20,105 bases of DNA from a virus. The position numbers and the translations under genes were made by a program. Shown piece by piece: positions 1-19,393 of the stretch; the first letter of the stretch is position 1; each line of letters starts with the position of its first letter. The notes beneath the pieces are model-generated. The model was not told where the DNA came from and searched no databases. It saw nothing but the letters and a program-made list of their open reading frames with translations. The DNA lies in the UHGV virus genome UHGV-0364294; one strand, written 5' to 3'.

Positions 1-560
1 CAGCAAACCCTCAGGTGTTTCAAATAGCTGTTCTTTTTACGGAAATACTTATGAACTGGCTGGAATAAAGTGCAAGAAAATGTGACTACTATCTCATTTT
101 TATCTGACATGATCTGTTGCCACTCGCTGCCAAATTGTCGCGCTAAAGCTGATTAGCACGGTGATATTTGATACTCTGGCAGACAGCAGAAATAACGGAT
201 TTAACCTAATGATGAATGACGGTAAGCAACAATCTACCTTTTTGTTTCACGATTACGCGCAACACCCCTGAGAACCGCCATGAACAAGGGTTTCATGATT
301 TGTGATTTTAGTTTGGTACGCAATTTGGTACACAACACAATTTTCACTTCAGCGGGTAGTCATCAAACTCACCATAACGCACTTCGTTGATGATGTACGT
401 GATCACCAAAAATATCGCATCCGGACTAGTTCCATCTTCATGCGCAGGCATATGTTCATGCCTACCTGTCTGCAAACCAGTAATAAGCCATTACAGGGTG
501 ATAGTGATGCATCAACTACGTTAAGCGCAGAGAAATGATGCAGTGGTGGGCGGATTGGCT

Positions 561-587
561 TGATGAAAAGGTGGAGTGCTCCACCTT
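561..587 (-). terminator. Putative intrinsic terminator of the tailspike/membrane-protein transcript
   Basis: Inverted repeat AAGGTGGAG / CTCCACCTT (568-576 / 579-587); on the minus strand the stem is followed by TTTTCATC. Lies about 90 nt downstream of the stop of the 674-961 gene. Confidence 0.45.
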
Positions 588-673
588 AACCACTATCGAA
601 GATCACAAAGCCTTGCAATCCAGTGCAAAGCTTTGTGTGTCTCAGTTTTGTTTCATCGGTAATTATGTGTTCG

Positions 674-961
674 CTACGATGCAAGAATCCATACCAATAA
701 GCATCCGATAATTGGGAAAGAAAAATCCATAAGGCTTCCTACATCCCACACGCGTGGATCAAAACCACCCCACCACGGCATATTCATACGCTTGCCATGC
801 CCGAACATTTCAATCCAGCGATATTCTGCCTGGGTGTGTTCACGCGCAATGAAGAACGTACAACCGGCTATCGCACCGTAAGCCCAGTTTCCGGTAAAAA
901 GACCAATCAGTACCTGCGCAGCCACAGCACAAAACGCATGAAGGAAAGGTGTTATATCCAT
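674..961 (-). CDS. Small integral membrane protein (95 aa, about 3 predicted TM segments), unknown function; candidate lysogenic-conversion or exclusion moron
   Basis: ATG at 959-961 preceded on the minus strand by AAGGAG with 5-nt spacing, immediately after the tailspike stop. Hydrophobic stretches FLHAFCAVAAQVLIGLF, AYGAIAGCTFFIA and FSFPIIGCLLVWILAS. The longer ORF in the track (start 1030) overlaps the tailspike and has no RBS. Confidence 0.6.
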   Translation of the reverse strand: MDITPFLHAFCAVAAQVLIGLFTGNWAYGAIAGCTFFIAREHTQAEYRWIEMFGHGKRMNMPWWGGFDPRVWDVGSLMDFSFPIIGCLLVWILAS

Positions 962-995
962 TATCGCTCCTTTAACATAAGGATAAATAAACACA

Positions 996-3134
996 TCATA
1001 AAATAGATTTCGTCTTTGTAACAATAACATCTACAAAATCGCCTGCAGATATAGCTGATGGTACTGTATCTGCAAGAGTAATCTTTCCTGAAGAGATGCT
1101 TTGCACATCTAATAATTTATTTTCAATCCCATCCGTATATACCAATTTGATATCACTGAGTGGAGGGTAATAAGTGATTGTTCCTTGGTATACATATATT
1201 TCACTACCTGAAATCGATTTCACTACATACCTGCCCCTTACAAGATTAATTTTGAGTTCAGATAAATCGGTTTTATAACAGGTAATTCCTGAACCAATGT
1301 TAGCCATACTAATATCAGTATCACTATAATAAGTAAGTGCTTTCCCTTGTTTTAAAGTAAAAGTATTTTTACTTTTCCTTGGTAAGGATGTGCTATTTTT
1401 GTAATATCTACCAGTAAAGCATAGCCATGAAAATGCAGTATTCACTACATTACCACCAGAATACACAGCTAAACGAATTGCACTAACTGGAACCCCTTCA
1501 TTATTAATCCTGATCTTAATGGAAGAAATATTAACAGCAGTGACATACCTATGGTTGGCAGAATCCCATTGCATAGAAGAAGTTATGGCTTCTGTTTGTG
1601 AGGTTATGACATTCCCATCTCTATCTAATGCATACAGGTAAATGCGAAACGATGCCGTATCTGCTGAGAATGTAAACATATCACCATTTCTTACTGGTAC
1701 ATCTCCAGATTCCCATAACAACCCAAAATTCCGCATAAAAGCAAACTTAGAAGAAACCAGGTGACGGATATTATATAAACCATCAACATCTGTTTGATAT
1801 GCTAATGCACCAACTTCTCCATTGTTAGCACTGGATATAAATGGGGTGTTAGCATTTAAAGAAAACAATGTTACTTCATCGGATATATTTTCCTGAATAT
1901 GAAATACTGCATTCCCCTTGCCATTATCAGTTACCTCGACATAAGTGTAAGGCGATGGATTGTATGGCTCATTTGTATACGCAGGAGATGAAAGCCATGT
2001 AGCTTCAATTGAGTTATTCCACGTATATTCACCAAAGTTAATTATCAACTGTTGGTTAGTTGGGGATGATGGATATCGTTCAAAACGAAACCCGTAGAAG
2101 TAATTGTTATCACCTCTTTGAATATCAATTTTACCTGCCCCCTCCATAGTTCCACCATAAAACTTATTGTGGTTATGATGATATGGATTATCAGCGAAAA
2201 TGATATTATTCGTACGATTCAGATAAAAATAGTTTTCATTTATCCATCCTTTCTCAACTCCAAGAAAATGAATTGTATCGACCTTTTTCAGGTTAAAGGT
2301 TGAGTATGCTATTGAATAATCCGTCGATGCCACCGAAGCATTATAATTTGCATATAACTGTAAGTAGTCGCAACGCTCAATGTTTATATGCTGCCCTTTT
2401 GCCCCGATAATACGAATATCCGGTGTCGTTTCAGATGAAATACCAGAATTTCTGATAATCGTTCCGAAGTTTTGTCTTGGGTTGTTAGGGTTTGATGCAT
2501 TCCCGCCAAGCAATACCCCTATTCCTGAGTGGGATATGGTAAAAACAGCATTGGTCATTTCGAGGCTGACATTACGAAGATTTAATGTCTCCGTAATAAT
2601 AAAATTACCTTCCGCTCGTAATGTTCTGGATGATTCTCGTGCATATTCTGCAGCCAAGATCAATGCAGATGTATCATCTGTTATACCATCGCCTTTTGCC
2701 CCCCACCCTCTTACATCACAATCGTCCCTCCACCGAGATATCTGCAATTCAGGATATTTTTTAGCTCCATCCGGGTCTTCTAATTGCTGCCGTAGTTGAT
2801 CAGGGTCATACTTCAGCACATTCGGAAAATAGAACTGCTGTGTACCATACGCATCATAAACAGCCATAGAATGGCCTTGCACAGTTACGAACTTGGCAAT
2901 CTGTCCGTTATATACCGGATATCCAGCAGCGTTAATGATGATTGGTTGCGAAACAGGAACGTGAGAGCCGTCTTCGTTCTCTATATAAACCTGAATCTGG
3001 TTTTCAGGATTTACCGGGTCAGTGTCAATTTTACCGATATAAATTTTGCCATTAGCTACGGCTTTAAAAGAACGCGCCATAGTGAAGAGTTGCGAAGGCA
3101 TGCTCACTACAACATTGGCTGTAATGTCTGTCAT
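996..3134 (-). CDS. Tailspike protein: P22 gp9-type N-terminal head-binding domain fused to a pectate-lyase-like beta-helix receptor-binding/depolymerase domain
   Basis: The N-terminus [11 protein letters not shown]...[36 protein letters not shown]...[12 protein letters not shown]...NVLKYDPDQ matches the P22 tailspike N-terminal domain as I recall it. Downstream, the motif [16 protein letters not shown] is typical of pectate-lyase-superfamily depolymerase domains. Length 712 aa. Confidence 0.9.
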
Positions 3135-3204
3135 TTAATTTGCTCCAGATACAAGGAATCGCCGCAGCATTGCCGCAGTGATGCATTATTAATCAAAAAA
3201 ATAC

Positions 3205-3217
3205 GACCACCGTGGTC
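3205..3217. promoter_or_regulatory. Mnt-operator-like palindrome (GACCAC-C-GTGGTC) in the mnt/tailspike intergenic region
   Basis: Perfect 6-bp arms around a central C; the core CCACnGTGG resembles the P22 mnt operator core (TCCAC-G-GTGGA as I recall it). Sits 65 nt upstream of the mnt ATG and 71 nt upstream of the tailspike ATG, which is on the other strand. Confidence 0.45.
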
Positions 3218-3281
3218 TTATTGAGGATGCAATCAGCAGATAATAAGATGCCGATCCACTCACAAAAGCGAGGCATCAAGA

Positions 3282-3533
3282 ATGGGAAGAGATGACCCGC
3301 AATTTAATCTGCGGCTACCTTACGAATTAAAGGAAAAACTAAAACAGCGAGCCAAATCCAATGGCCGCTCTCTTAATTCAGAATTAGTTCAGATAGTGAC
3401 TGATGCTGTATCAAAGCCATCCAAAATTTCAGGCTATCGAGACGATGCGGAACGCATCGCTGATGAGCAGTCAGAGCTTGTTAAGAAGATGGTGTTTGAT
3501 ACGCTGAAGGATTTGTACAAAAAACCCACCTGA
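3282..3533 (+). CDS. mnt: Mnt repressor (ribbon-helix-helix, Arc/MetJ superfamily)
   Basis: The 83-aa product MGRDDPQFNLRLPYELKEKLKQRAKSNGRSLNSELVQIVTDAVSKPS...YRDDAERIADEQSELVKKMVFDTLKDLYKKPT is close to P22 Mnt as I recall it (MARDDPHFNFRMP...NGRSMNSELLQIVQDALSKPS...DLYKKTT). GAGG lies 8 nt upstream of the ATG. Confidence 0.9.
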   Translation: MGRDDPQFNLRLPYELKEKLKQRAKSNGRSLNSELVQIVTDAVSKPSKISGYRDDAERIADEQSELVKKMVFDTLKDLYKKPT

Positions 3534-3549
3534 AGGTGGGTTAATTTTT
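3524..3549 (+). terminator. Intrinsic terminator after mnt
   Basis: Stem ACCCACC (3524-3530), loop TGAA (contains the mnt stop), stem GGTGGGT (3535-3541), followed by TTAATTTTT. Confidence 0.6.
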
Positions 3550-3567
3550 GCATTTACCTGGGCCATA

Positions 3568-3596
3568 TTGACTACTTATAAAATGAGATCAATATT
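3568..3596 (+). promoter_or_regulatory. Putative sigma70-type promoter for the small 3633-3812 gene
   Basis: TTGACT (3568-3573), 17-nt spacer, AATATT (3591-3596); ATG about 37 nt downstream. Judged by eye only. Confidence 0.3.
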
Positions 3597-3632
3597 TAAT
3601 CGCCCAATAACGGGTGTATGTTGAGGTATATC

Positions 3633-3812
3633 ATGGCGAAAAAACCAGGTGAAAACACAGGAAAAAACGGCGGAATATACCAAGAAGTTGGCCCACGCGG
3701 CGGTAAGAAAGACAATTTTGCAACCGTCAAGGACAACGAAAGGCTTCCACCAACAACAAAGCCAGGTCATGGCTGGGTATTGGATAAGCGAACTCCAGAC
3801 AGCAAAAAGTAA
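3633..3812 (+). CDS. Small hypothetical protein (59 aa), YjzC-like glycine/lysine-rich protein
   Basis: ATG at 3633 with GAGGT 5 nt upstream (the track ORF starts at 3618 without an RBS). Sequence MAKKPGENTGKNGGIYQEVGPRGGKKDNFATVKDNERLPPTTKPGHGW resembles the YjzC-like small-protein pattern from memory. Flanked by terminator-like hairpins on both sides. Confidence 0.5.
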   Translation: MAKKPGENTGKNGGIYQEVGPRGGKKDNFATVKDNERLPPTTKPGHGWVLDKRTPDSKK

Positions 3813-3818
3813 TAATCA

Positions 3819-3840
3819 AGCCGGGTCACTCCGGCTTTTT
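3819..3840 (+). terminator. Intrinsic terminator (possibly bidirectional) between the convergent 3633-3812 and 3826-4191 genes
   Basis: Stem AGCCGG (3819-3824), loop GTCACT, stem CCGGCT (3831-3836), followed by TTTTT. It overlaps the 3' end of the minus-strand gene. Confidence 0.6.
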
Positions 3841-4191
3841 GATATGTCGCTCGCAGAACTCAACAAGCCTGCTCATTAAGTAGCAGTAAGTCTCGTTGGC
3901 TCTTCCTGGTTCAACATCAACACCTACCCTTGAGCAGATATCGAATGCCATGTGAGCGCACTCATGGGCAATAGTAGATAGTTTGCCATTGAACACGCCT
4001 ATCACATGAAAAACACCATTCTCGCTACTCATTGTATGAGACGCTCCGTTGGCGTCCGAGTCATGCACGTCAACGCCAAGTTTTTGATGCAGGCGTTGCC
4101 ATTCTGGAAAGTCTCTACAAAACACAATTGTACCGCTCTCAAAGAGCGGAACGAGCATCTTTGGTACGTTTCCAATGTTAACTTTTTTCAT
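3826..4191 (-). CDS. Small HExxH protein (121 aa), putative zinc metallopeptidase-like (ImmA/IrrE- or SprT-like motif); function unknown
   Basis: Motif TIAHECAHMAF (hydrophobic-AHExxH). A weak RBS (AGGA) precedes the ATG at 4191; an alternative start is the Met at 4158. It occupies the sieA position between the gp16-like gene and mnt. Confidence 0.5.
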   Translation of the reverse strand: MKKVNIGNVPKMLVPLFESGTIVFCRDFPEWQRLHQKLGVDVHDSDANGASHTMSSENGVFHVIGVFNGKLSTIAHECAHMAFDICSRVGVDVEPGRANETYCYLMSRLVEFCERHIKKPE

Positions 4192-4225
4192 GGTATCCTG
4201 CGCAAAACTAAGGAGAGTTAATTAT

Positions 4226-4711
4226 ATGAAAAAATCACTGTTAATTATCCCGCTTCTGCTGGCTGGGTGCGCAAAAGTAAGCGACTATCAGGCAAGTTGC
4301 GAGCAACGCTATCCAAAGCTTAGCGATATGGCTAATTGCCTTGATGCCAGCTTGAAGAACGACTCTCGCATGGCATCAGCACCAACACCTAAGCTGTATG
4401 TCCTTGCTGCGAAGATGCTCGGGCAAGGTGTCGATGAAGGCAAGATAAGTGACACACAGGCAAGACTTGAACTTCAGAATCTTTATGTTCAATTACAAAG
4501 CCAAGAACAAGCACAACAAATAGCACAAAGCCAAGCATTCCAGCAGGCTTTATTGAATTATCAGGCTGTAAACACAATGCAAGCGATCGAGCAAAAAGCG
4601 CGCCAGCCTGTTATAACTCAACCTTACCCAACACGCGTTGACACATATACAAACTGCAATTCAGGATTTGGAAACACGGTAACATGCAACAGTAGCAGTA
4701 ATATCAGATAG
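4226..4711 (+). CDS. Phage-encoded secreted lipoprotein (161 aa) with a Q-rich predicted coiled-coil segment; candidate superinfection-exclusion or lysogenic-conversion protein
   Basis: ATG at 4226 preceded by AAGGAGAG (4210-4217). The N-terminus MKKSLLIIPLLLAGC has a signal peptide and lipobox (LAGC). The track ORF start at 4175 lacks an RBS. Confidence 0.65.
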   Translation: MKKSLLIIPLLLAGCAKVSDYQASCEQRYPKLSDMANCLDASLKNDSRMASAPTPKLYVLAAKMLGQGVDEGKISDTQARLELQNLYVQLQSQEQAQQIAQSQAFQQALLNYQAVNTMQAIEQKARQPVITQPYPTRVDTYTNCNSGFGNTVTCNSSSNIR

Positions 4712-4724
4712 TTATATCTTATTT

Positions 4725-6572
4725 TTATTGCTGTTCTGCTGTAATTTGGCTTGAAAGTATAGGGCGTATCGCATTTGCAGCATTATTTAGCGCTCTTTCA
4801 TAGGCTGGTGTTCCTGCTTTGGTGTTTGCCAAACGTAAGAGAGCATTCCTTGCTGCTTTTGACTCATACAAGCGCATCATTGCACCGAAACCAGCCTCAA
4901 GCCCCATTGATACGCCAAGAGTCGCAGTTGCGCCAATCGTCCTTATCCTGTTGGCTTGCGATTGCCCCGTCTGAGTTACTACATTTGCGGTGTCTGACCT
5001 TGCTGTTTGCTGTAGAACTTCATGAAGAGAATCAAGCTCTTTCATGTGCTTTCCAGAAAAAATAGTGTTGTAAATTTCACCGCCTGACTGAGATTTCAGC
5101 TTATTAACTTCAGTGATGAACTTGGCTGGAGAGTCACCGGCCTTTTCCGCTATTTTGCTGACATAAGCTGCACGCATAGCATCTTTCCCTTTATTATCCA
5201 ATGCGCTCCAGATTCGTTTCACGTCAGATGGTTTTCTGCTTAATACAACGGTATTTATAAGTTCAGGACTGGCTTCACTGCTTGCCTTGTTGAGCTTGTT
5301 AGCAATGTTTTTATTAAGCACCTTATTATAAACGTTTGCATAATCGGAATTTGCTTTAAGGTATTTTGCTGCGTCTGATGCACCGAGGTTTTTTGCAACT
5401 GCGTTACGAAGATCTTTTGACATTGCATTCTCTACCATATTGGTAGCTGCTTTTGCCTGGTTTGGGAAGACCATAGCATCTCCCTGAACATTAGATCTAA
5501 ATGCTGTTCTGTGCTGACGCAAGAGATCAAACGTAACATCCAAATCAGTTGCAGGGTTTGCTAATTCTTCACGTAGGTTACGCAAGGATGTAAGCAGGCT
5601 TTGATTGGCAGACGTCCCAAGCCGTTCCTGTCTTGCGATCGCTGTATTCAGAGCATTCATGGTATTTGTGGTATCAACTGCGGCATTACCCATTTTATTG
5701 GTGACGTCATTGATAACAGCGCCAGCGGCATCCTTCCGCCCCCTTAACGTGGTGGTAAGAGATTTCACCACATCATCAGGGTTGTACTCACCAAAACGGT
5801 CAAAATAATTACTTACCAGCTTACTACGCGTTGCATATTGCTCCGCTCGCTTTGAGCCTGTCCCGAGCAAAGCCCCCTCGGCATCCTGAGTTAGGCCGCG
5901 AGTGAAAGCATTTTTCGGCGGGATAACATCAGATGTCATTGGTGTCACGCCCATCGATTCTGATGTGGCAATTTTCTTCGCCACTTCTGGCGCAATATCA
6001 CCTTTTATAGCCGTTATTCCACGCCCTATTCCCTTTGCTGCTGCGGAAAGAACCCCCTGAGCGGCAAGGTTAACTCCGGCATTTTTAGCTGCATTTTGTG
6101 CGAAATCGCCTTTCTGATTTGCGGCCTCTGCCAGTGATCCAATAGCCATGCTTCCTGCCGTTCCAACTCCTGGAACTAAATACCCGCCAATTGTTTCTCC
6201 AGCTTGCGCATAAGGGTCTGTTGGTCGATCGACTGGACGATAGACATCGTCCAAAACCTTGGGGCCACCAAGCCCCTGGCTGATTGCATTAATCAGACTT
6301 GCGCCGCCCTGCAATACGTCAAATGGTATGTTTACCAGACCACGACCAGCCTGTTCCGCAATTTGCCCTGCACTTTGACCACCAGTGAGCCAATCGCCAG
6401 CTTGTTGCATCAATGATGGTTCTTCCCGTGTTGGTGCATTATTGGCCTGATTAACTGTTTGTTGCTGAACAGCCTGACCAGCAAAATACTCATCAATGGC
6501 GGTGCCAATATCTTCGGTGCTCGTACCATCAGGAAAGGTAAATGTCTTACCGTTTGCAGTTACTTTCATCAT
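4725..6572 (-). CDS. Ejection (internal/E) protein, P22 gp16-like
   Basis: 615 aa (P22 gp16 is about 609 aa); last gene of the ejection-protein block; Ala/Gly/Gln-rich; 4-nt ATGA overlap with the upstream gene. Confidence 0.75.
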
Positions 6573-7975
6573 TCCACCGTAAATTGAATGCCTGATTTTG
6601 AGGTATATGATCCAACCTGATTCCGTGGTTCTCCTGAAGGTGTCGAATCTTGTGCTGGCGCTGCGTCAGTATTCATTGACATATACCGCTTAACGGCACT
6701 CCCCAATGATTCACCTTTTTTAACATCCAACCCCAATATCTGACCGCCATTACGCGATTGTCCAGGGTTGCCATTCGCGCTCATCCACTCAGCTTTAAAC
6801 TCATTAAACTGCGCGTTTCGTCGCTCAAGGTTTGCCATTGCATCAAGCCATCTTGCGACCGTCTCAGGGTTATCCATGTCAGTTGGCGCACCCTGTCGAA
6901 CGATCTCAACGTCTTTATCCGTTGCTGGGCCGGGAGGTAGGAATTTAAGAACCTGACTGTTAACAAGGGCATTTTGGCGAATGCGCAAATCACGCAATGT
7001 CGTATCGCTTCCGGTAAGTTTTGCGAACATGTTCTGTGCGTTACCGAACAAGCCGGTCGTTGGTTTTTCTGCTCTGAACTGTTGAGCAAGCGCACTCATG
7101 GAATTGGCTGAGTTTGATGATGCTGTGGCATTGTTTACAGCCGTCTCGATGCCTTTTTCCATGTTTACTGACAGCTTAGGTGCTTCGCTAATCAACTGCT
7201 GAGCCTTTTCCTGCGCTTGCTGCATCTTAAACCCGAACTCTTGCTGATCCAGAGCCAAGCGTTGTGCTGCGATATTGTGCCCAGTCATTGCTGACTGATA
7301 GGAAAGGTTTTGCCCTCTCGCCTGAAGTGCTTCACCAGCCTGATTGCTGCGGATTGTCTCTGCCAGCCCGCCTCGGTCAATCTCACGACCAGCCATCTTG
7401 TCCTGAACATTGAAGTAATCAATCGGACCAAGAGCAGCCATTCCAAGGTGATCAACAAACTCACCAAATCCTGAAGGATTCTGCTGATACATCTGAGCAA
7501 CGCTGTTAGGGTCAACACCGACGCGAGTCAGTTCCTTGGCGTTGTTTTGCAGCCATGATTGCATTGCTTCTGGAGACGATGACGCAAGGCGTGCGCCAGC
7601 CGCTAAGGTGCCGATAGAATTACGCTGCTCTTCATCAATGAATCCCATGCCTTTACGAACGGATTCAATCTGGTCTGGATATTGAGTAGCCAACTTACGC
7701 AAAGCACCGCGATCACCAGACGCATAAGCATTAGCGTACGCCTGCTGAAATTCTTTCTGCCGCTGAGCCTGCTTTTCCTGCTGAAACACCCCCGCAATAC
7801 CAGAAAGACCTTGCAAAGCTGTCAGCCCAACATTGTTAGCGCCTGAACGCTCAATATCATTGTTCTGCCTGATAAGCTGAAGCGTGTTGCCGATGTCATT
7901 TACGCTCGGAGCGTTTGAGTTGACACCACCGATACCAGCCAACAATCCGCCATTTGTTCCTTGCCAAGTAGCCAT
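6569..7975 (-). CDS. Ejection protein, P22 gp20-like
   Basis: 468 aa (P22 gp20 is about 471 aa); position between the gp7-like and gp16-like genes. Confidence 0.75.
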
Positions 7976-7984
7976 GATTACCCC

Positions 7985-8680
7985 TTAAAACAACGATCCA
8001 AGCAGGCCAAGTCCGCCGCCAATTGCCGCACCTAATCCAGTGCCAAGTCCTGGAACAATAGAGCCAAGAGCAGCGCCAGTCATAGCCCCTGAAGCTCCTC
8101 CGCTAATTGCTGTCTGAAGGCCTGATGGTTTATTGGCATTAGCAGCGGCAAGAGCTGCGCTTTGCTGTGCAATGCTGCTCATGTTGTTGGCGTACGTCTG
8201 CCCGGCGTTTGCCTGACCTTGCAGAGCACCAAGCCCAACGTTTGCCAGATTGTTGTAATTGCTCATCTGATTTGATAACCAAGACTGACCGAGTGTCGGC
8301 GCGATCGTAGCCAGTTGATTGCTTGTGGCTGTCGAACCAAGTCCACCCGTCGCCTCCGCAGCAGCAAGACTCTGGTAACGAGCCTGCCCTGCAAGGTCTT
8401 TATACTGCTGAGAGTTGTAATACTGATTAAGTGCCTGCCCCTGACCTTCTAAACTGGAAAGGCTCTGAAGCTGGTTAACATACTGCTCCGCAAGAGGCGT
8501 GAACTGAGCAAGGTTTTTCATGATCGTCTGCCACTGCTGATTTTGCAGGTCTGCAGCATACTTCTGGGCTTCTGCTGCATACTTTGCGCTTTTATCAGAA
8601 CTGCCACCTTTCCCGCCTTTTTCAGGGCAATAAGGTTCCTCGCCGCGCAGTTTTCTGCCCAGCTTAAATGCATATAACAT
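7985..8680 (-). CDS. Ejection protein, P22 gp7-like
   Basis: 231 aa (P22 gp7 is about 229 aa); Gly/Ala-rich C-terminus; position. Confidence 0.7.
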   Translation of the reverse strand: MLYAFKLGRKLRGEEPYCPEKGGKGGSSDKSAKYAAEAQKYAADLQNQQWQTIMKNLAQFTPLAEQYVNQLQSLSSLEGQGQALNQYYNSQQYKDLAGQARYQSLAAAEATGGLGSTATSNQLATIAPTLGQSWLSNQMSNYNNLANVGLGALQGQANAGQTYANNMSSIAQQSAALAAANANKPSGLQTAISGGASGAMTGAALGSIVPGLGTGLGAAIGGGLGLLGSLF

Positions 8681-8682
8681 GG

Positions 8683-9141
8683 CTATCTCCCGTGATTCAG
8701 GAAGTCGATTAGTTCTTCGCGTGTGGCGCTGTAAAACGTCACGTCATCCACGCCTTTAAAGTATTTCTTGATGGTTCCTACACGATTAAGGCCAATCATT
8801 GCGCAGTACATCTGCCCGTGGCGGAATTTGCGTGCAGCGAACGATGTGACACACTGAACAGTGGTGTTAGTCAGAATGTATCGCCAGAACGCCAGCCCGA
8901 TTTCCTTGCTGAATCCACGAACCTCTGGCAGGTACATGGCGTGGCAATCAAAGGTCAAAGGCTGAATCTCCTGATAGTAAACAATGCCGCCGAACTGCCC
9001 GTGCACGTTCACCTCGAAGTAACGGCATTCAGGCTTGTAGTCGTATCCATCACCGTTGTTGCTCCCGGCAATAATGTCAGGGTGATTTCCGACTGCTTCG
9101 ATCAGGTCGATGTTTCGCGTTGGGTTGAACTGAATCATCAC
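8683..9141 (-). CDS. P22 gp14-like protein (positional homolog, virion assembly/ejection-associated)
   Basis: 152-aa ORF directly downstream of the tail needle gene (start overlaps the needle stop), upstream of the gp7-like gene, as in P22. Confidence 0.55.
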
Positions 9142-10091
9142 TGCTCCGCGATTATCTTGATGGTTGTGGCAGTAAACGCCGCCACATTTGACTGGATGGT
9201 TAACGTACTGCCATTTGTGGCAAGAAAGCCGTCTTTATCCACGCTGAAGAACGTAGCTAACAGGATGTTATCGGTTGTTGTCGCCGAGTTGCGACTGCTT
9301 ACCAGTGTGTCAGGAACAGATCCGGAAAAGGTTAGCTGCATTGACCTGTTTGCGGTTCCGCTGGGCCACGTCCCGACAATCGACAGCTTGAAGAACAGGG
9401 TTTTGTTCTCGTTGAAAACAACCATCTTGTTGTTATCAGTATCGAAGAATGGTGCCAACGTCCCGGATGACGGCGTGAGCGTTTTCAGCAGGCTAACAAG
9501 GTTGGTCGGCGCTGTTGGAATGGTTACCGATACTCCTGAGTAAACAACCTCTGATTTCTTGCGCGTGGTGGCATACTCAAGCGCAGATATTCTTGTTGAG
9601 TGATCACCAACTGTGCTTTGTAGCGTCGAAATACTTCCCTCTGCCGCTGTGAGCCTGGTATCAAGTGCGTTGATATCGGTTGTATTCTGAGTTATTCGCG
9701 CATCATGGTTTGCTAACTCAGATTCATTGGCAGCAATTCGCGTCTCGTGATCAGCCAGCTCTGTTTCGGCAGCCGTAATCCTTGTTTCATGATCTGCAAG
9801 AGTGCTTTCCGCTGCTGCGATTCTATGTTCATGATTGACGAGAGTTGCTTCAGCAGCAGCAATTCTGGATTCATGGTCTGCAAGGGTGACATCCTGCTCA
9901 TCATTCTTCACCTGTGCATCATAAGCTCCCTTCCCTGCTTCGTTGGCCTTGTTAGCCACGTTACCAACATCAGTACCCTGTGCGATAACGTACAGCAGAT
10001 ATGACTGCGAGAAGATATTGCGTGGAAGGACTGATGTGTCGAGTCGTGTAGCCTGAATGATTACCGGCTCATTGAGATTCGAATCAGCCAT
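9138..10091 (-). CDS. Tail needle (P22 gp26-like) with central coiled-coil repeats and an extended beta-rich C-terminal domain
   Basis: The real start is the ATG at 10089-10091 (TAATG overlap with the gp10-like stop). [43 protein letters not shown]...[14 protein letters not shown] matches the P22 gp26 N-terminus as I recall it. 317 aa versus about 233 aa in P22. The track ORF of 351 aa is over-extended. Confidence 0.85.
9636..9887 (-). repeat. About six imperfect tandem 42-nt repeats encoding 14-residue (two-heptad) units of the tail-needle coiled coil
   Basis: Protein repeats [14 protein letters not shown] / [14 protein letters not shown] / [14 protein letters not shown] / [14 protein letters not shown] / [14 protein letters not shown] / [14 protein letters not shown]; the 42-nt periodicity is visible in the DNA. 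Confidence 0.7.
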
Positions 10092-11509
10092 TACTCGATC
10101 CTTATCTGGCAGCCAGACAGAGTGACAGGTGACTTCGTGATAACGCGCAATTTGAAGCCGACATTTTTCCTGATGCGCCCGACTCGCTTCCACAAAACAC
10201 GCTTGTCGTAAACGAACGGTTCATTCTGCTCAATCATCTGCTCACGACCGTAATTGATGCCATCAGTGGTTGCCGAGAGGAACAGGCGGTCGGCGTACTG
10301 AGCGACCCCCGTCGATGATTCCACCTCCAGATCAAAGCATCTGGCGTTATCTGCTTTGAAGAGTGGAGTAAACAGCAGGTGTTCTTGCTGTAGCCCATAC
10401 TGGCTGCTGATGTCGAACTGCAATTTTCCGGTCACGGACTCCAGCTTATCGCCGCACGTTATCTGATTGCCTTCGTAAATGAAGTCGATAGCGCGGTACA
10501 CATCGTCATACAGGCCTGTTTTCAGCACACACCATTGCGGACCATTGGCGCTTGAAGATGCGTCGTACACAAGGACGTGACGCGAAAGATGGATAATCAG
10601 CAACTCATGAGCATCAAACCGCAACGATTCCATCACACCATCAGCCAGTTCATCAGCAGTGTAGGAGCGGAGGATTTTCTCAATGCTCGCGCTGGCGATT
10701 GGTGATACCTGACCGGAGCCGATGATGTATACAGACGGAGCACCTGTTGCCGGATTGCTGATAAACGCATAGGAATCAGCAAACGGCGTTTTGCAGTAAG
10801 TTCCGGCAATGCCTTTCTGCACCATCAGTGATGGCTGTGCGACATACAAAGCGGCACCAACGGTGGTTGCCCCAGTCAGGGAAAAATATTCAATCGTCGA
10901 TGAACCAAAGCAGACGATGAAGTCTCGCCATGTTCCGATGCCGAGGATACCGTCCGGCTGCGATTCTGCGCGATATTGTGCGCTGTAACGGTCAGGATGC
11001 GATTCGTCTTCAAGGTCAGTGATAAACCATGAATCCGTGCCGTCTTTTGACCACGCATAACGCCCACGTAAACGCGTAATGTCGCGAACCGAACCTAACT
11101 CATACTGAGTGAATCCGCTGTCTGTAGGCCAGTTTGAGACTGTTTTAACCGTTCCATCATAGCGATACTCGACCAGTTGACCATTAACGCCTACCGCCTG
11201 AGATGTTCGACCATGCGCCATTGATACGCGACCACTTCCGGCAACATCACCGACCTCGCTTTCGCCCTTATACAACTTGCCACCGCAAACGCGATAAACA
11301 GCATTCTGCGCCATGTTGTACTCGACACCGCGCGATACACCATTCACATCAGAGCGTTTGGCAATGCCAGGGAATGAGCGAAGATATCCACTGCTGTTGA
11401 GGATTTCTTTGGGGGTTGCCAGCATATTCACTGGCAGATAGTCGATATAGTCGGCGTTTCGAAAGTCTTTGCCGACACCTTTCATAAGCGGAAGTTGCTG
11501 AATCGGCAT
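10091..11509 (-). CDS. Tail accessory/hub protein, P22 gp10-like
   Basis: 472 aa (same as P22 gp10); position between the gp4-like gene and the tail needle. Confidence 0.8.
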
Positions 11510-12009
11510 TATTCGCTCCCGTTATCGCAAGGTTCCTTTCGCTGGAAGTAATTCCAACCGTTCCACTTCGCCAACTGGTTACCACTACCAACAGGCATAC
11601 GGTTTGGATAACCGGACTTACATTTAGCGGCTTTTGCTCTGTCCATTGCAGACAGTTTGACGAGTCTCTCTTTCCCGTATCTGGCAGTGGTTATAAGTTT
11701 TGCAGACGCTTCCAGCGCATAATCCGGAGCAATGCGGCAGGCAAGGTTGAAAATGACGGCATTGATAGCGTTATTTGATAAACCGTGCTCATCGCCCGGA
11801 TCTGGAGCGACATCTGCATCAGCGAAAATGTAGCCAACGTTGATACCAGGTGACACATCACCGCCAAGCCATTCAGCCATCATCATTTCAAGGTCGTTGA
11901 CGCCGTCTTCCATAGACTGCGGTTCGACATCGGTTAACGTGGCATTTGATGCCACACCGAGCTTACGTAATGCCGCAAGAACTAAATCACCCTTCGTTGT
12001 CAGGTTCAT
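11509..12009 (-). CDS. Tail accessory (head-completion) protein, P22 gp4-like
   Basis: Start at 12007-12009 with AAGGCGG 7-8 nt upstream. [33 protein letters not shown]...[14 protein letters not shown] matches P22 gp4 as I recall it. The 196-aa track ORF has an N-terminal extension with no RBS. Confidence 0.85.
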
Positions 12010-12235
12010 CTGCTGCCGCCTTAGGTTTTCGACCAGGCTTTTTACGCTGTTTTTCTTCTGGCTCTGGCTCTGGCTCTGGCTCTGGCTCTGCAACATCATT
12101 CAGAAGATTATCAGGATGTGCAAACCAGCCAGCATCCAGATATTCCTGAAGCTCTTCGGCTTTCACGATTTCAAAGTCGTATCCAACGCCTTTCCATTTC
12201 TTCATGTCGCCATGACGAAAGATCATGTGTGTCAT
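11987..12235 (-). CDS. Small hypothetical protein (82 aa) with a (EP)n linker and a basic C-terminal tail; overlaps the gp4 start by 23 nt
   Basis: ATG (MTHMIF...) preceded by GGAGA with 5-nt spacing, directly after the coat-distal hairpin. The product contains [12 protein letters not shown] followed by [11 protein letters not shown]. No homolog recognised. Confidence 0.4.
12061..12090. repeat. Perfect hexanucleotide tandem repeat (GCTCTG)x5
   Basis: Read directly from the sequence; encodes (EP)n in the small-ORF frame and (SQ)n in the gp4 frame. Confidence 0.95.
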
Positions 12236-12249
12236 GCTTGTCTCCAGAT

Positions 12250-12271
12250 AAAAAAGGGAGCCGAAGCTCCC
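12250..12271 (-). terminator. Intrinsic terminator/attenuator-like hairpin immediately downstream of the coat gene
   Basis: Minus strand reads GGGAGC-TTCG-GCTCCC followed by TTTTTT (GC-rich 6-bp stem, tetraloop, T6), 8 nt after the coat stop codon. Confidence 0.55.
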
Positions 12272-12279
12272 TCTGGTTA

Positions 12280-13575
12280 TCACGCAGTCTGGTTAGGCAG
12301 ACCAACACCAATTGCCTCTGGTCGTACAGCACATGCTGAATACCACACAGCAATACGGCACTTACCAGACAGAGTGTTGATATCACCCTGCGTTGCGAAG
12401 ATGCCGTTAACACCAATACCTGGAATGCTGAAGGAAGAAGTTTTCATGCCAGCAAACAGTTCATGGGTTACCGGAATCGGCTGAGACAGCAGGCGGATTG
12501 AGTCATCAGCCCAGAACACGTTAGCGGTGGTTGTTGCCACGTTCAGAACGTTTACCGGAGTGGTATTAGCAAGAGAGGTGTTTACGTTAGCGTAAGCCTT
12601 CTCTTCTTTTGTCAGTGACGCGTCATCCAGCGCAATCGGCTTCGGCGTGATTTCGATGTGAGTACTATCGATCACTCGGGTGATTGAGAAAGTCGCATCA
12701 TCAGTCAGCACGTTCTTCGCCATCTGAGACAGGAATTTCACACCAGTGAAGCTGATTTTGTCGCCGCGCTTAAATCCGGTGGTGGAGGATACGGTCACCG
12801 TTGCAACACGGTTGTCGACGTTCTCCTTGTTACCATCGGTATCAAGGGTGTATGCCTGCGGCTTAAACTTCTGCGCTCCAGACACAGTTACACCAGTAGC
12901 GGTTGACTTGGTAACTGCCGGAAGTTTCGGTGAGCGAAGAATTTCATCAAAGCCAGCAATCTGACGCTGAATAGTACCGTTGCGATACGCTTCTTCAGGA
13001 ACGCGACCGAAGATGTCACCATCTACCAGGTTGCGGCCTGCTTTGCGGTAATCGTCAGGATTCAGGAAGTAACTGATGCCCATATCGCGGTTTAGCTCAC
13101 GGGAGAACATCAGTCGCTCTGCATCAGACACAAAATCCCATCCAGACAGGCCAGTAGATGGACCAATTGCGCGGGTATCGTGAACAACAAGCGAGCCCAT
13201 TTCAGTTGCCTGTTTGGCAATTGCTGACTCAATGTTATTCGCCAGTTTTTTGGCGGATGCCTGGATGCGGCGACGGTAAGAACGCTCATCACGCAGGTCA
13301 TCTGCACGAAGCTCGAAGAAATCGTTATCCGGATCGCCCATGTTGCATTTCACGGAGAGTTCCAGAATCCCGGTTGCGTTGTCAGTTAAATCCCAGCCAG
13401 TCTGGGTTGGCGCTTCCTGCTCAACAGGCATCCACACGGTGTTGCTTGAACGCTGCATTGATTCTGCCGGAGGGGTGTATTTTGTCACTTTGGACGCCAT
13501 TGGCGTCAGGTTCTGGACGGTTTCGATGATTTCATCCAGAGCATATGTGACCAGTTGACCTTCATTTAATGCCAT
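12280..13575 (-). CDS. Major capsid (coat) protein, P22 gp5-like (HK97 fold)
   Basis: 431 aa; [20 protein letters not shown]...[15 protein letters not shown]...[10 protein letters not shown]...GVGLPNQTA matches the P22 coat protein as I recall it; TAATG overlap with the scaffold gene. Confidence 0.92.
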
Positions 13576-14486
13576 TATCGAATTCCTTTATTCAGTTGCG
13601 CCTTAAGCTTGCGGTACGTCTCTACATCCCCTTTGTTTGCTGCCGCTTCCATCTGCTTTTCAATCGCAGAGATATTTGCAGCAACAGCGTGTCCCTGAAT
13701 GGGTTCATCAGGTAACGGGGCTTCTGAAACAGGCTTTGCTCGAGGCTTGAGAGTTAAACGTTCTGACAGTCGAGTGAGTTCAATCAGCGCGGATTGCCCG
13801 TCCATCGCCAGCAACTGGCGTGTTTTCTCAGGATTAGCACCAAGGTGATACATGAGAGCAGCGGATTTCTCCGGGAAGAGGCGCATGATGTCGGCACCGA
13901 CTGCTGTCGGCACCAGTTGCATGAATGCATCCTCTTTCTCCTGATAGTCAGGGATATTGAGCTTTTCCGCTGCGTCGTAGTGCTTACGGGCTGCCTCGAC
14001 GTATTGCGCTGATTGCTGGGTGAACTCCTGAGTTTTGCGACCCTGCTCGGCGACAGCCTGGCTTCGTGCGTCCATAGCCTTGATCTGCCATTCACTGTTT
14101 GCCTGCTGGAAGGCAGCCAGTGCGCGGCTCTGGTCATAGTCGTACTTAGCCAGTGCATCTTCGGAAAGATAATCGTTAGGGTCTGGTTGTTTTGGTAACT
14201 CAGGGTTCACCCGCAGGTGCTCCGGCAACTCTCCACGCTTAACCGCTTCCATCTGCTGCTCAAGCTCACGCTGGCGTTTGCGTTCGATGCGGCGACGGGC
14301 AAATTCAGCATTAGTTGCCGGGTCTTGTTTTGGTTTCTCATCGTCTTTCAGGACAATCTCAAAGCCTTCTTCCTGACCTGCACTGTCGTTGGCATTATCG
14401 ACAACTAAGCCATCAGCAGATGCCGCTGCATGATTGCCGGGCAGGGTTAATTCTTCAGAAGCCTGAATGTCGGTGGTTTGGTCCAT
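13575..14486 (-). CDS. Scaffolding protein, P22 gp8-like
   Basis: 303 aa (same as P22 gp8); [46 protein letters not shown]... and the C-terminus ...[11 protein letters not shown] match P22 scaffold as I recall it. Confidence 0.9.
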
Positions 14487-14499
14487 GGTTAACTCTCTC

Positions 14500-16665
14500 T
14501 TATTGAGGTGTCTCGGCTACTCCGCCGGAGGGGATTTGAACTTGACGCATAAGATTCGCGAAATCCATGCGTTGTGAATGAGTCTGGTCTGCATCTTTAA
14601 GAAGCAGCTCAGCGTTAGCACGAGCATCTTTGCTGCGCTGTTGCTGGAATTGACCTACGAGCTTGAGGTACTCACGCAGTTCTGCCTGCTTGTCGAGGTC
14701 CATATTGTTGAAGATTTCTGCAATCTTCGCGGCGTTGAGTTGGTTTTGGGCTTCAACCTTGGCGGCTTCAACCTGAATCTGCGCCTGTTGGTTCTCTGCC
14801 TTGAGCAATTCAGCCTGACCTTGCAGAAGGATACCCTGCGCCTGAATTTGCTCTGCTGATGGCTGCTGCGGCTGCTGTTGAGCCTGCTGTACCATCTCCA
14901 TCTCTTCAGGTGTTTCTGGTTTCTTCAGCCCCATCATCACCAGTTGCTTGTTCGCGTACTCTCGCATCATCTCGACGCCTTTACCGTCAAGCAGCGTGAA
15001 GTATTGCAGCATCAGCATCTGGAACTCTGGAGTACCTTGCGGAACCTTGGTGAGCAACTCCTGAATCTCTGCGCGGTTCTGTTCCTTCATACTCTGGAAG
15101 GATGGTCCAACGTCTGTATAGCACTCATAGCGACCGCGAATGTCGTTGAGTGTGACCACATTGCCGGACTGGTAATCGACAACTTGCGCGTAGAGTTGAA
15201 CGTCTTTCTCGCTACCATCTTCAAGTGTCAGCGTTACATGGCGAGGAACGTCATAAATATCGTTGACCATTGAGGCATAAATCTCGCCATCACGTCGCAT
15301 TGCGGTAGCTAGGTTATCCTGAAACACGTATGTCTCAAGGTCTGCCCGCATGTTCAGTTGATTGACGGTATCGAAAGCGACCTGAGAGTTTGCTGCCTGC
15401 GCATCCACACCAAGACTAGCCACCTCTTTCACTGCGTTGGTGGCAGCCTCAAGCATGTAAGCGTTGGCTTGCGGCACTTCAGGGTTTTCCATGTAGGAGA
15501 TTGGGCCAATCGGCAGGTCGTTACCGTTTTCATCGGTCTTGTTCTGCAGATAGTACGGATAGTCATCATTTCCACCGTACATGTATTCGTAGCCTTCGAT
15601 TTGCTCAGGGAAGAAGGTCGGTTTCTTCTTCGGTGAACGAGCAACAATATCGGCGTTGAATGACATGATCATGTTACGAAGGCGCTGACCGTCTTTCGTC
15701 AGCCTTACCACTCCTTCGTAGCACTCCTTGTCACCAGCGAATGACCATTCGCCATACACTGGAACGATTGGAATATGCTCTCCGGCTATCTTCTCGCGGT
15801 CTTTCAGTATCTGCGTGCAGGTGATGATCGACTTATACACACGCCGACGCTTCACCTTGCGCTCTGCTACCTTAATGAATCCACGATTAGCCAGGTCGTC
15901 GATGACGTCTTTGATATCTTGCTGGTAATAGCTGACCGGCTCACCTGTCAGCGGGTCGCGGTAGATGAAGACCTTCTCTTTCTTCTCTTCGACCTCGTAA
16001 TACTCAGCGACGTAGACGACATCATTCGATACCCACGGAAACAGCCATGTATCGTTCGGATTCTGGAAAGATGGCAGCGTGTCAGGATCAATACCGTAAT
16101 CCTCTGCGAACTCTTTCCAGCCATTGCGTGACAAAGCGTTAATCACCGTGCAGTGCTTAGCGTCGCTCTTATCCATCTGCTTGCTGTTTGCGTCCCATAT
16201 GACGTGTGAGCAGGCCTCATGGATTGGCAGGCGTCGGATTACCTGATTGTTGCTTGTTGGATCGTTGTCTTCGTACTGCGTGACCAGACGCCATGCACCA
16301 ACGCCGGACTCTATCTGCTCACGAACGCCAACGTTAACGGCAATTTTTGCCGTGTTATGGCGCATATCAGTACGATACATCCCCATCAGCACATCGGCAG
16401 CATCAGGATTAGCACCGTCTTTTGGTCGGAAGAGAACGTCGATAGGGTTCCGGCGCATCTCTGCGACCAACTTCCTGACAACCGGGCGGACAACATCGAA
16501 TTGTCCGCGATACTGCAGGGTGGTGTAGTTTGATAGCCAGTCATCCCATTGCGACACTCGGCTAAAATACAGGTCATTTGTCGCCTCGGTTCTGGCTTCA
16601 TCGCTCGCCATCCAGTCTGCGTCAAACTTACACAGAATGGAATTGAGTCTGTTTTCGTCGGCCAT
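14500..16665 (-). CDS. Portal protein, P22 gp1-like
   Basis: 721 aa (P22 portal about 725 aa); extensive match to the P22 portal as I recall it, including the Q-rich C-terminal barrel region ending ...SGGVAETPQ. Confidence 0.9.
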
Positions 16666-18165
16666 TTAAGTTCTCCGTGCGATGGGCCTGATTGGGGCTG
16701 GTATCTTTTTCTCTTTTGGTTTTTTGATGTCGCGCATCATTTTTGCGAAGCGACGCATCATGTATGCATAGCGAACGGCGGATAGCACGTCGTCGTTAAG
16801 CTTGACGATCTTCCCGTTTTCATCACGGTGATAGAGGCGGAACTCCTCAAAGAATGGCTCACAGGTGTTGAATACTTTGAAGCGACCATCGAGCATCATG
16901 TCTCGCAATTCAGTGATGCCAGGCTCAACAGCATTACCGCCATCAGGCCATGTCGCATGCTCCTGCAACATCATAAATCCAGCGTCTGCATACTGCCCTT
17001 TGAGCTGCTCACCACCGCCCTTCTCATGCTGGTTTCCGTCATGAGGCCATGCGGTTGGCACTTTATGCGCCCATGATTTAACAGCTCCCCACGCCTGAAC
17101 GGCTGTCTTTTCTTTCGCCTTCCACACGCGTGAAACGTAGATTGTGTCTGCGTCCTTATCCCACCAAAGCTGAACCTGCGCCTGCGGGTGATCCCATCCG
17201 AAATCCATCCCGCCAATTACGTAGAAGTGATCAGGGCACTCAAACGGCTGACACTTAATCGTCTCTTCCGGTATCTGGAAGATTCGCCCGCTACCCATCG
17301 TAGGAATACCGCGAGCACGCGCCTCTCTCTCATGCTCAGGATAGGATGCGATGATTTGCTCTTTCTGCTCGTCGGTGTAGTGCTCAGCGTCATAGATGGT
17401 CATGTTGACCACTTTCTGCGACTTGCTTGGATTCTTCAGGAACTTGGTAACAACGTCAGACATCCCCATCAGCGGGGTAAACGTCAGAATTGAGAATTGC
17501 CCGTATTTGTTGGTACGGGTAAGACCTTCGCCATAAATGCTGTATGGTGGCTCTTCGTCAAACCACACGCCGTGGATTGTGTCACCCTGCCAGCGAGCAC
17601 GGCCTTGCGAGTATGGCTTGAAGTAGCAGATTGAAATGCCATCTTCAACGCCATCAGCCGTGTGATGCTTAACCAGAAGATGATCAACAAGGTTCGGAAA
17701 GAAAGGAGACTTCTTCCAGCTAATGATGTCCTCTTTCGGTATTGAACCGTAGCCCGGTTCATCATTCTCTTCAATACGACCGCACAGGATGCGTTGAGTC
17801 GTTTTGGTTACCGTCTCGTTTGTCTCGCCGCCAATCCAGAAGACAACAGGCTCATAGAAACGCTTACCTTTCCACTCACCGCCATATTTACCATCAGCAG
17901 GATAGCCTTTTGTGCCCGGATAACGCCCTGTAAGGTGAAACGCGACTTCAGCAGCACCAGTAAATGACTTACCAAGCTGGTTACCAGCCATAAAACATCG
18001 CTCTGGATAGTCATGCCCGGCGTCGATGAACTCACGCTGTTTGCTGTATGGCGTAAATTCATATAGCAGGTGTGTGTTACGGTAGTTCTCTTCTTCTTCG
18101 AGTAGCTCGAGCAATTCGATTTGCTCTTCGTCGCTCAGGTTATCAAGAATCGCGTCCAGTTCCAC
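16666..18165 (-). CDS. Terminase large subunit, P22 gp2-like
   Basis: 499 aa; [37 protein letters not shown]... matches P22 TerL as I recall it; overlaps the small-terminase gene by 23 nt. Confidence 0.93.
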
Positions 18166-18637
18166 GGTTGAATAGCTCCTTGATACGAGATCGTCGCTTA
18201 TCGCGATCTCCCTTATCAGGTGTCACGTCTTCAACTTGCGACTGCTCTTTGAGGCCCAAATCACGGGCGATGATGTTAGCGTTGAGAAGGTCAGCGGCTG
18301 CGCCAGAGAATTTCTGGTCGTAGATGATGTCTTCCGCTCGTGATGTGACGTCAGAAAAACCTTCCATTGACCGGAAGGTCCCCCATGTTTGCCTGGTGAT
18401 ATCAAGGAAGGTACACAATCCTGAAATAGTCATGGCTCGCATCTTAGGGACATTAGCCTTAATTATTTCTCCCTGATATGAAAATACCTTACCCTCCCAT
18501 AGCGGGTTATCATCAGCCCACTCGAAGTATTCACAACAAGCAGCCCACAGCGCCTCAGGCGATTCGAATTTAGGGTTTCGCCCATGACTACTGCGGGCCT
18601 CCCAAAATCGGTTGCCCTTTGGTGCTGCCATATTCAT
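18143..18637 (-). CDS. Terminase small subunit, P22 gp3-like
   Basis: [40 protein letters not shown]...[24 protein letters not shown] matches P22 gp3 as I recall it; the start may be the ATG at 18637 or at 18631. Confidence 0.9.
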
Positions 18638-18666
18638 CTCACTTAGTTGTTATTTCAGGTTGAGCA

Positions 18667-18909
18667 TCATGCTCCGGTAGTGAACAGGTCTAACGCTTCC
18701 TTAGATTTACGCACCGCTTCGAATGTGCGGATCGTGATATCCGAATTAGCGCCGCCTGACTGGAAGTGAATTTTGAATAGCTCAAGCTTCAGTTCGTCAG
18801 TGCCAATGAACTGAAATGCTTCCTCTGCGGCTGCGTTCTGGTTCATGACCAGTTTGTAAATCTCTAACTGGAATTTCTGTTCTTCAGTCATGGGAATAAT
18901 CTCTGCCAT
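18667..18909 (-). CDS. Small hypothetical protein (80 aa), positional equivalent of P22 orf80 upstream of terminase
   Basis: ATG preceded by ACGGAG; acidic 80-aa product; the position and length recall the small ORF before gene 3 in P22. Confidence 0.5.
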   Translation of the reverse strand: MAEIIPMTEEQKFQLEIYKLVMNQNAAAEEAFQFIGTDELKLELFKIHFQSGGANSDITIRTFEAVRKSKEALDLFTTGA

Positions 18910-19012
18910 TGTTGGCTCCGTTTATCCGTTAAAAGGGATATCAGTTAAGTTATCCCGTGTAGGGTATAAGCCATTATCAAAGCCACTCTGTAGGGAATGG
19001 CTTTTGTAATAA

Positions 19013-19393
19013 CTACTGTTCGCTTAGCTTCTGCTTCAGCAAGTAACCTTCGAGCATCCAGATTTTGTTTACAGCATTTTGCCGGGCAATCTTCCGACCA
19101 ATTTCTGCATCAAAGTTTTCCGTGCTTGCACAGGCACTCTCTCCGGTGACGGTGAAGCCATTCTTCAGCACCAGTACGCAGAAAGTGAGCAACTTCAATG
19201 GTGATAAATCACGATCGCCTTCTTCTGGTTTTTCCCTGCCACAATATTCGTTGCTGGAAATGGCACCATTACGTCCATCATAAGCAGTAAAGTAATGCTC
19301 GCTTTTAATCACGTCTTCGATGTGCTGCGGAGTGATTCGCGGTGCCGTTTTGCCTTTCTCAACGATTTCTTTTTCGATTTGCTGGTCGTTCAT
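19013..19393 (-). CDS. Conserved phage protein, likely Phage_gp49_66 (N4 gp49 / Sf6 gp66) family; function unknown
   Basis: 126 aa with a HYFTAYDG...LTFCVLVLKNGFTVTGESACASTENFDAEIGRKIARQNA pattern that I recall as characteristic of this family. Located between the lysis and terminase genes. Confidence 0.55.
   Translation of the reverse strand: MNDQQIEKEIVEKGKTAPRITPQHIEDVIKSEHYFTAYDGRNGAISSNEYCGREKPEEGDRDLSPLKLLTFCVLVLKNGFTVTGESACASTENFDAEIGRKIARQNAVNKIWMLEGYLLKQKLSEQ

Follow-up and report, generated by a model that had tools for sequence, protein, structure and literature searches.

Which surface glycan does the tailspike in UHGV virus genome UHGV-0364294 recognise, and how did a P22-type virion come to carry its receptor-binding part? 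The stretch of this genome analysed here, 20,105 nucleotides long and called the window below, encodes a 712-residue tailspike on the minus strand (Table 1), which is the tailspike of a P22-like temperate phage integrated beside dacD in Escherichia coli. The protein is a modular fusion, and everything from residue 144 onward is an interchangeable cassette made of a beta-helix and a beta-sandwich receptor-binding part. The predicted target of that cassette is a chondroitin-backbone (K4-family) capsule rather than an O-antigen. Our reading, to which we give a probability of about two in three, is that the module recognises this group 2 capsule and, as a trimeric depolymerase displayed on a P22-like mosaic tailspike, cleaves it.

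The sequence-only reading of the gene had assigned the first 110 or so residues to the P22 gp9 head-binding domain and had the rest of the protein diverging from P22, and both statements hold. PF09008 (Head_binding) covers residues 1-113 with E = 9.5e-68 and 226 bits against a cutoff of 24, which places the protein among P22-type tailspikes, and a Pfam search of the 712 residues returns nothing beyond it. The solved tailspike structures of Sf6, P22, and HK620 align to residues 1-118 only, with E from 1e-45 to 5e-65, the best match being Sf6 gp14 in the solved virion structure (E = 5e-65). By megablast against 50,697 phage records, 32 P22-like phages, including HK620, Sf6, CUS-3, and epsilon34, match only the start of the gene, from nucleotides 1-330 up to 1-470, at 81-94% nucleotide identity. 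The tailspikes P22 gp9, Sf6 gp14, HK620 gp9, and that of CUS-3 have the same PF09008 domain and the same plan of head binder, linker, and beta-helix, and Lederbergvirus tailspike genes likewise lie after mnt/arc/ant, where the prophage ends. They differ in having no sequence similarity from residue 144, or from residue 158 for CUS-3, and in their targets, which are the O-antigen for P22, Sf6, and HK620 and polysialic acid for CUS-3, as against the K4-family capsule predicted here.

Exchange of tailspike modules in P22-like phages is textbook knowledge, capsule-specific cases such as CUS-3 included. Here the joining of a P22-type head-binding domain to an unrelated beta-helix module, as the earlier reading had it, is seen directly in related genomes. 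One of these is strain IR53017, whose prophage matches the window at 99.7-99.8% identity over 2780-20104 and at 96% over 519-958. Its homology runs down to window 2780 and resumes at 958, and an unrelated 663-residue tailspike is encoded in the interval. In strain S87 the module is found in a T7-like prophage, which has a T7 gp14-family core protein and an SLT-domain protein and encodes a 771-residue protein with a different N-terminus. Over the last 569 codons of its gene and most of the small gene that follows, nucleotide identity to window 732-2702 is 97.8%. The S87 homology begins exactly at GGGGCAAAAGGCGATGGT, the codons of G144-AKGDG. The cassette and the small downstream gene thus circulate between prophages of the P22-like and T7-like kinds, in copies that are about 97-100% identical in nucleotides. 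Exchange takes place on the left through the head-binding/linker region and the cap motif encoded by the conserved GAKGDG codons, and on the right through the small downstream gene. The ratio of nonsynonymous to synonymous substitution rates (dN/dS) between the P22-like copy and the T7-like prophage copy is 0.2, which indicates purifying selection on the module. This is a clean case of one receptor-binding cassette in two unrelated podovirus lineages with the junction lying within a conserved motif.

The mosaic has at least four parts, namely the head-binding domain (residues 1-117), a linker (118-143), the beta-helix (144-415), and the C-terminal beta-sandwich region (416-712). The linker is missing from the T7-like version and from IR53017, and the CUS-3 endosialidase tailspike shares both linker and cap motif, with homology through residue 158 at 88.8% nucleotide identity before it diverges, and so the linker counts as a third piece with a distribution of its own. 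The "bsq1 boundary sequence" annotated in CUS-3 was considered as the domain junction and ruled out, as it is intergenic and upstream of the gene. A second breakpoint lies inside the module at window position ~1890 (gene nucleotide 1245, residue 415), where the beta-helix ends in the structure model. Strains 20AR0300 and N1131 match only up to residue 415, at 84-89% nucleotide identity, and have a different C-terminal region, and hence the beta-helix and the C-terminal beta-sandwich can be exchanged separately. Across a collection of 5.8 billion proteins, homologues of the module stand behind PF09008, PF18668, PF12571 (Aeromonas), PF27114 (Pasteurella, Haemophilus), or no recognised adaptor.

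The small downstream gene encodes a 95-residue hydrophobic, predicted membrane protein with no Pfam or NCBIfam match, and it may serve as a right-hand homology arm for cassette exchange. It accompanies the module into T7-like prophages and, in a near-isogenic prophage, stands next to a different one. A homologue of it (P0152) comes from an Aeromonas salmonicida contig that is probably also the source of a homologue of the tailspike module (P0019).

The evidence on the target comes first from the hosts. We searched 5426 complete E. coli genomes with the module (gene nucleotides 433-2139) and found it in 15, in the P22-like form in 11 and in the T7-like form only in the other 4. The full-length tailspike is 96.5-99.8% identical in 11 E. 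coli genomes, where it bears the label "phage head-binding domain-containing protein". More than one copy of the module is present in PS_131_S11, which has one P22-like and one T7-like prophage and a K4-like capsule locus, and in AST20 (NZ_AP043617.1). Fourteen of the 15 carriers have a group 2 capsule locus with a homologue of the chondroitin synthase KfoC, belonging to K4 proper or to one of three variants. This count was obtained by sensitive blastn with a chimeric query joining the module to a kfoC segment, which gave a second or third match in those 14; 68 genomes match either part of the query, leaving 67 of the 5426 with a KfoC-like gene. By chance, 0.19 carriers would be expected, and a Fisher exact test that treats the genomes as independent and ignores their shared ancestry gives p = 7e-27. 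The module occurs in hosts with the polymer locus, independently of O type in the carriers checked, with the one exception of strain W46.

We inspected the K loci of four carriers, PEC011, MS14385, PS_131_S11, and S87. The kps region 2 of PEC011 is that of K4, with a galE-like gene, a 546-residue open reading frame (ORF), a GT2 protein of 686 residues with a score of 1455 bits against the K4 chondroitin synthase of known structure (2Z86), an insertion sequence (IS) element, a uridine diphosphate (UDP)-sugar dehydrogenase, and further genes; this segment is found in 20 of the 5426 genomes, the carriers PEC011 and 23CRST013 among them. The MS14385 locus has a pyruvyl transferase and a dehydrogenase alongside galE, a sulfotransferase-like/DUF8374 protein, and a KfoC homologue of 690 residues with a score of 1124 bits against 2Z86. 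Megablast finds it near-identical in 27 genomes; MS14385 and EC11 are carriers among these, as are, for part of the module, N1131 and 20AR0300. A third type, 80% identical to the MS14385 locus, is found by megablast in 18 genomes, half of which (9/18) are carriers; in PS_131_S11 it consists of kfoA-, B-, C-, F-, and G-like genes only. The fourth variant, that of S87, is more divergent; it lacks galE, and its KfoC homologue reaches 825 bits against 2Z86. The KfoC proteins of the four variants are 54-86% identical. KL4 is one of a cluster of related K loci that have kfoA-D in common (PMC13171598), and K4 is fructosylated chondroitin according to Rodriguez et al. 1988, as cited in PMC10272209.

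An O-antigen would be the familiar target for such a spike. The classical P22-like tailspikes share this head-binding domain and act on O-antigen as endoglycosidases or deacetylases, our model has the Sf6, Det7, and CBA120 tailspikes among its fold matches, and both PEC011 and MS14385 have rhamnose-pathway O-antigen clusters, so the K4-family link could be a by-product of lineages that carry both. We tested the O-antigen as target and rejected it, and regard this explanation as very improbable. The carriers differ in O type, with tailspikes 99.8% and 98.9% identical to the window copy in PEC011 (O102) and MS14385 (O1), respectively, and a module of 97.4% nucleotide identity in JNE070796 (O166:H15 according to the strain name). 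Only 1 carrier occurs among the best 60 of 107 O102 genomes, and the capsule association spans four divergent K-locus variants and two phage families.

The co-occurrence might also come from shared ancestry or from the ecology of a few clones, the true ligand being another surface glycan or a lineage-restricted structure. The association statistics carry no correction for phylogeny, some carriers are near-clonal (100117 and 100248, AST20 and AST240, MS14385 and EC11), and W46 has the module without a KfoC-type locus. We nonetheless think this unlikely, as the carriers have at least three O types and the four K-locus variants just described, and as their prophages lie at argW, dacD, and near yfgI, argW and dacD being sites of the P22-like prophages and the T7-like ones lying elsewhere. 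W46 shares its argW prophage with the K4-positive PEC011, and a capsule switch after lysogeny might explain that exception. An independent homology, to a capsule-specific depolymerase of Pasteurella phages, points in the same direction as the host distribution.

That homology emerges when the relatives of the module are ranked. The nearest in isolated phages are two Vectrevirus genomes (PDP21P6/P3) at 48% identity, with none higher in the phage collection; a literature search found nothing published on them. Next come the Pasteurella multocida phages PHB02, Pa7, Pmp1, ZA29, and F108, whose proteins align with 97% of the module at about 31% identity (E = 1e-72). Type A is the hyaluronan capsule of P. 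multocida, and hyaluronan and chondroitin have a common backbone of glucuronic acid (GlcA) and N-acetylhexosamine (HexNAc), GlcA-beta1,3-HexNAc-beta1,4, differing only at C4 of the hexosamine. The PHB02 match is gp17, a 968-residue "tail fiber", which we identify with the enzyme Dep-ORF8 because both are of about 109.6 kDa. Recombinant Dep-ORF8 makes translucent spots on 31/31 type A P. multocida strains and has no effect on capsule-deficient mutants (PMC6090149), and P. multocida produces a hyaluronan capsule (PMC12691920). Homology with gp17 of PHB02 (Wuhanvirus) and with the Pa7, Pmp1, ZA29, and F108 proteins runs across the beta-helix and the C-terminal domains. The differences are a T7 gp17-like N-terminal adaptor and another host genus and capsule, and the identity is too low for a transfer of specificity. 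Taken together, host distribution and PHB02 homology converge on a glycosaminoglycan-type capsule as target of the module.

The family to which the module belongs is already present in PHROGs as phrog_18162, without a characterised E. coli member. Residues 135-712 match positions 216-800 of the PHROG 18162 "tail fiber protein" profile with E = 7e-300. The 771-residue T7-like prophage protein of that family has the same module, its S87 copy being 97.8% identical in nucleotides from residue 144 to the stop codon, and differs by an N-terminal adaptor of ~190-215 residues and by the type of virion.

To ask what the module might do to a capsule, residues 116-712 were modelled by AlphaFold from 45 homologues, with a mean predicted local distance difference test (pLDDT) score of 91.6. 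The model is a right-handed parallel beta-helix, predicted to be the catalytic and receptor-binding domain, followed by beta-sandwich domains, and its fold matches include the Sf6, Det7, and CBA120 tailspikes. The earlier claim of a pectate-lyase-superfamily motif survives in part. The motif is present at residues 143-158 and the model has a pectin-lyase-like fold, but PF12708 (Pectate_lyase_3) is not called by Pfam on the 712-residue protein at E ≤ 1. Some distant homologues have precomputed PF12708 matches, and only the motif aligns to such proteins. It is the generic N-terminal cap (N-cap) of many beta-helix enzymes, and by way of this motif only, the family profile reaches GH55 glucanases, polygalacturonases, mannuronan epimerases, and many tailspikes. 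Sequence similarity to KflA of coliphage K5A, RbmB, chondroitinase B/PL6, and alginate lyases and epimerases is likewise limited to the N-cap motif.

A candidate active site can be read from conservation. Twelve residues (G244, Y277, W297, N299, E300, F303, Y318, N323, E331, R350, E352, and N374) are invariant in the 45 homologues, down to 22% identity, and H320 and N321 are conserved in at least 90% of them. The invariant residues are spaced by ~22-28 positions, about the length of one helix rung, as would be expected if they lined a single active-site face of the beta-helix. Invariant Tyr, His, Arg, Asn, and Glu would be compatible with a lyase or a hydrolase alike; beta-elimination is slightly favoured over hydrolysis on account of the uronic-acid polymer as presumed substrate and of several of the top fold matches. 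Capsule depolymerase activity is what we infer from these conserved putative active-site residues and from the capsule-dependent spots made by Dep-ORF8 at 31% identity. The module could instead bind the K4-family capsule without cleaving it, as an adhesin-type spike like inactive tailspike variants. We hold this to be distinctly unlikely, as twelve residues, three Glu, two Tyr, and one Arg among them, stay invariant, at rung-like spacing, in such divergent homologues, and as the spots made by the Pasteurella homologue are typical of capsule stripping.

Several observations weigh against a chondroitin-cleaving module. Specificity rests on co-occurrence in lysogens and on 31% identity to an enzyme assayed by spots on bacterial lawns, and the Fisher test ignores common ancestry among the genomes. 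Searches of the module in Pfam, NCBIfam, and PDB sequences give no catalytic family, the N-cap motif being the only match, and the three invariant Glu fit a hydrolase equally well. W46 has a glycerol-phosphotransferase-type, K2-like region 2 in place of a KfoC-type locus. The S87 synthase is 54-56% identical to the other KfoC proteins, in a locus without kfoA/galE; where that gene would be there is a 1.2-kb unannotated gap (L015 3205-4448), in which neither blastn nor tblastn finds a galE remnant. The S87 polymer may therefore not be chondroitin, and possibly contains N-acetylglucosamine (GlcNAc) in a hyaluronan-like chain. Finally, hosts whose loci specify different decorations, one type having the K4 fructosylation genes and the other a pyruvyl transferase, share a module that is 99.9% identical, which would therefore need to cope with side groups or attack undecorated stretches.

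If the K4-family reading is correct, infection might proceed as follows. The head-binding domain would plug the spike into the virion, and the spikes, trimeric by analogy with other tailspikes, would bind the K4-family capsule. The virion-bound depolymerase would then cut the backbone of GlcA and N-acetylgalactosamine (GalNAc) processively, with the row of invariant Glu, Tyr, His, Arg, and Asn on the beta-helix as its candidate active site, and the phage would tunnel to the outer membrane.

The earlier reading had also called the 3' two-thirds of the gene (about 996-2400) A+T-rich and had taken this to suggest a different source for the receptor-binding module. The composition is borne out. 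Residues 145-712 are encoded at a G+C content of 0.365, with 0.28 at third codon positions (GC3), as compared with a mean of 0.496 (standard deviation 0.022, minimum 0.436) for 306 other windows of 1704 nucleotides, and the head-binding domain is at 0.429. G+C is not uniform along the gene. The best single change-point, at gene nucleotide 768 or window ~2366, agrees with the proposed limit of about 2400; the recombination junction (residue 144, window 2705) lies upstream of it, and the lowest G+C of the gene (0.33-0.37) is in the C-terminal beta-sandwich domains. A different source is supported by the exchange seen in related genomes, whereas low G+C by itself names no donor. As proof of a particular donor it was rejected, because the alternative tailspike module of the near-isogenic IR53017 prophage, the one alternative checked, is equally A+T-rich at 0.363. 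As a side observation, the K4-family kps region 2 genes in the four carrier loci are at 32-36% G+C, compared with 50% in kps region 1 and 36.5% in the tailspike module. This parallel between module and capsule locus is one of similarly low G+C only.

Around the tailspike gene lies the virion module of a P22-like phage, with every gene on the minus strand. It comprises portal-sized and scaffold- and coat-sized ORFs, gp10 (Phage_stabilise), an Sf6-type needle knob, and a DUF2824 protein, followed by the ejection proteins gp7, gp20 (Inj_translocase), and a gp16-sized ORF, with a Mnt/Arc repressor directly upstream of the tailspike ORF. Pfam matches in the window to Phage_stabilise, Phage_tail_NK, P22_gp7, Inj_translocase, and Arc/Mnt, together with synteny with annotated prophages, identify it as a P22-like virion module at a prophage end. 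Window 1-700 is matched in 5420 of the 5426 E. coli genomes, with most of the stretch covered in 316, and in strain MS14385 the full stretch maps directly before dacD; homology to prophages integrated at other sites ends at 519. The match in nearly all genomes and the position before dacD put the prophage end near 519 and the host junction inside the window. This integration site is also used in MS14385 and EC11.

Two further ORFs lie near the repressor gene. A 121-residue ORF (3826-4191, minus strand) between the gp16-like gene and mnt has an HExxH motif (HECAH) and no Pfam match, and judging by that motif it may be a small metalloprotease-like accessory gene (moron). The ORF at 4226-4711 (plus strand), opposite to the virion genes, has a lipoprotein-type signal sequence, MKKSLLIIPLLLAGC, a Gln-rich middle, and no Pfam match, and is a candidate lysogenic-conversion or exclusion lipoprotein.

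Table 1. Features of the tailspike gene and its surroundings, in window coordinates
Feature	Coordinates	Strand	Basis or remark
Tailspike gene	996..3134	-	712 aa + stop codon; ORF list
Head-binding (particle-attachment) domain, residues 1-117	2784..3134	-	PF09008
Linker/neck, residues 118-143	2706..2783	-	Common to CUS-3 endosialidase tailspike and PDB 9vvr_A
N-cap motif, residues 143-158, also recombination junction	2661..2708	-	S87 homology start at G144; CUS-3 homology end at 158
Right-handed parallel beta-helix, residues 144-415, predicted catalytic and receptor-binding domain	1890..2705	-	Structure model
Candidate active-site residues W297, N299, E300, F303, Y318, N323, E331, R350, and E352, with H320 and N321, predicted to lie on successive beta-helix rungs	2079..2246	-	Invariance in 45 homologues
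C-terminal beta-sandwich domains, residues 416-712	999..1889	-	Structure model
Gene of 95-aa hydrophobic, predicted membrane protein downstream of tailspike	674..961	-	phrog_1443; right-hand cassette flank
Host chromosome upstream of dacD, not phage	1..518		Prophage end near 519

The mosaic itself adds little to what is known of these phages; the added value is a concrete prediction of host range. K4, with K1 and K5, is among the E. coli capsules that mimic host glycans, and depolymerases for K1 and K5 have long been in use as typing and therapeutic tools. We found no K4-specific phage depolymerase in the literature searched, which leaves most subscription journals outside and may miss older K-phage papers. 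K4-family (KL4-like) strains cause bloodstream infections (PMC13171598). If the prediction is confirmed, the tailspike would provide a typing reagent for such strains and a candidate capsule-stripping enzyme, and possibly a tool to trim microbial chondroitin. A bolder and tentative proposal, which we hold at clearly less than even odds, is that it is the founding E. coli member of a beta-helix family (PHROG 18162 / PHB02 Dep-ORF8) that depolymerises unsulfated glycosaminoglycan capsules, and the first phage chondroitinase. If that were true, the family would join the enzymes known for other host-mimicking E. coli capsules, the endosialidases of K1 and the lyases of K5, and its Pasteurella and Aeromonas relatives would suggest that a low-G+C module has moved between genera on phage tail genes.

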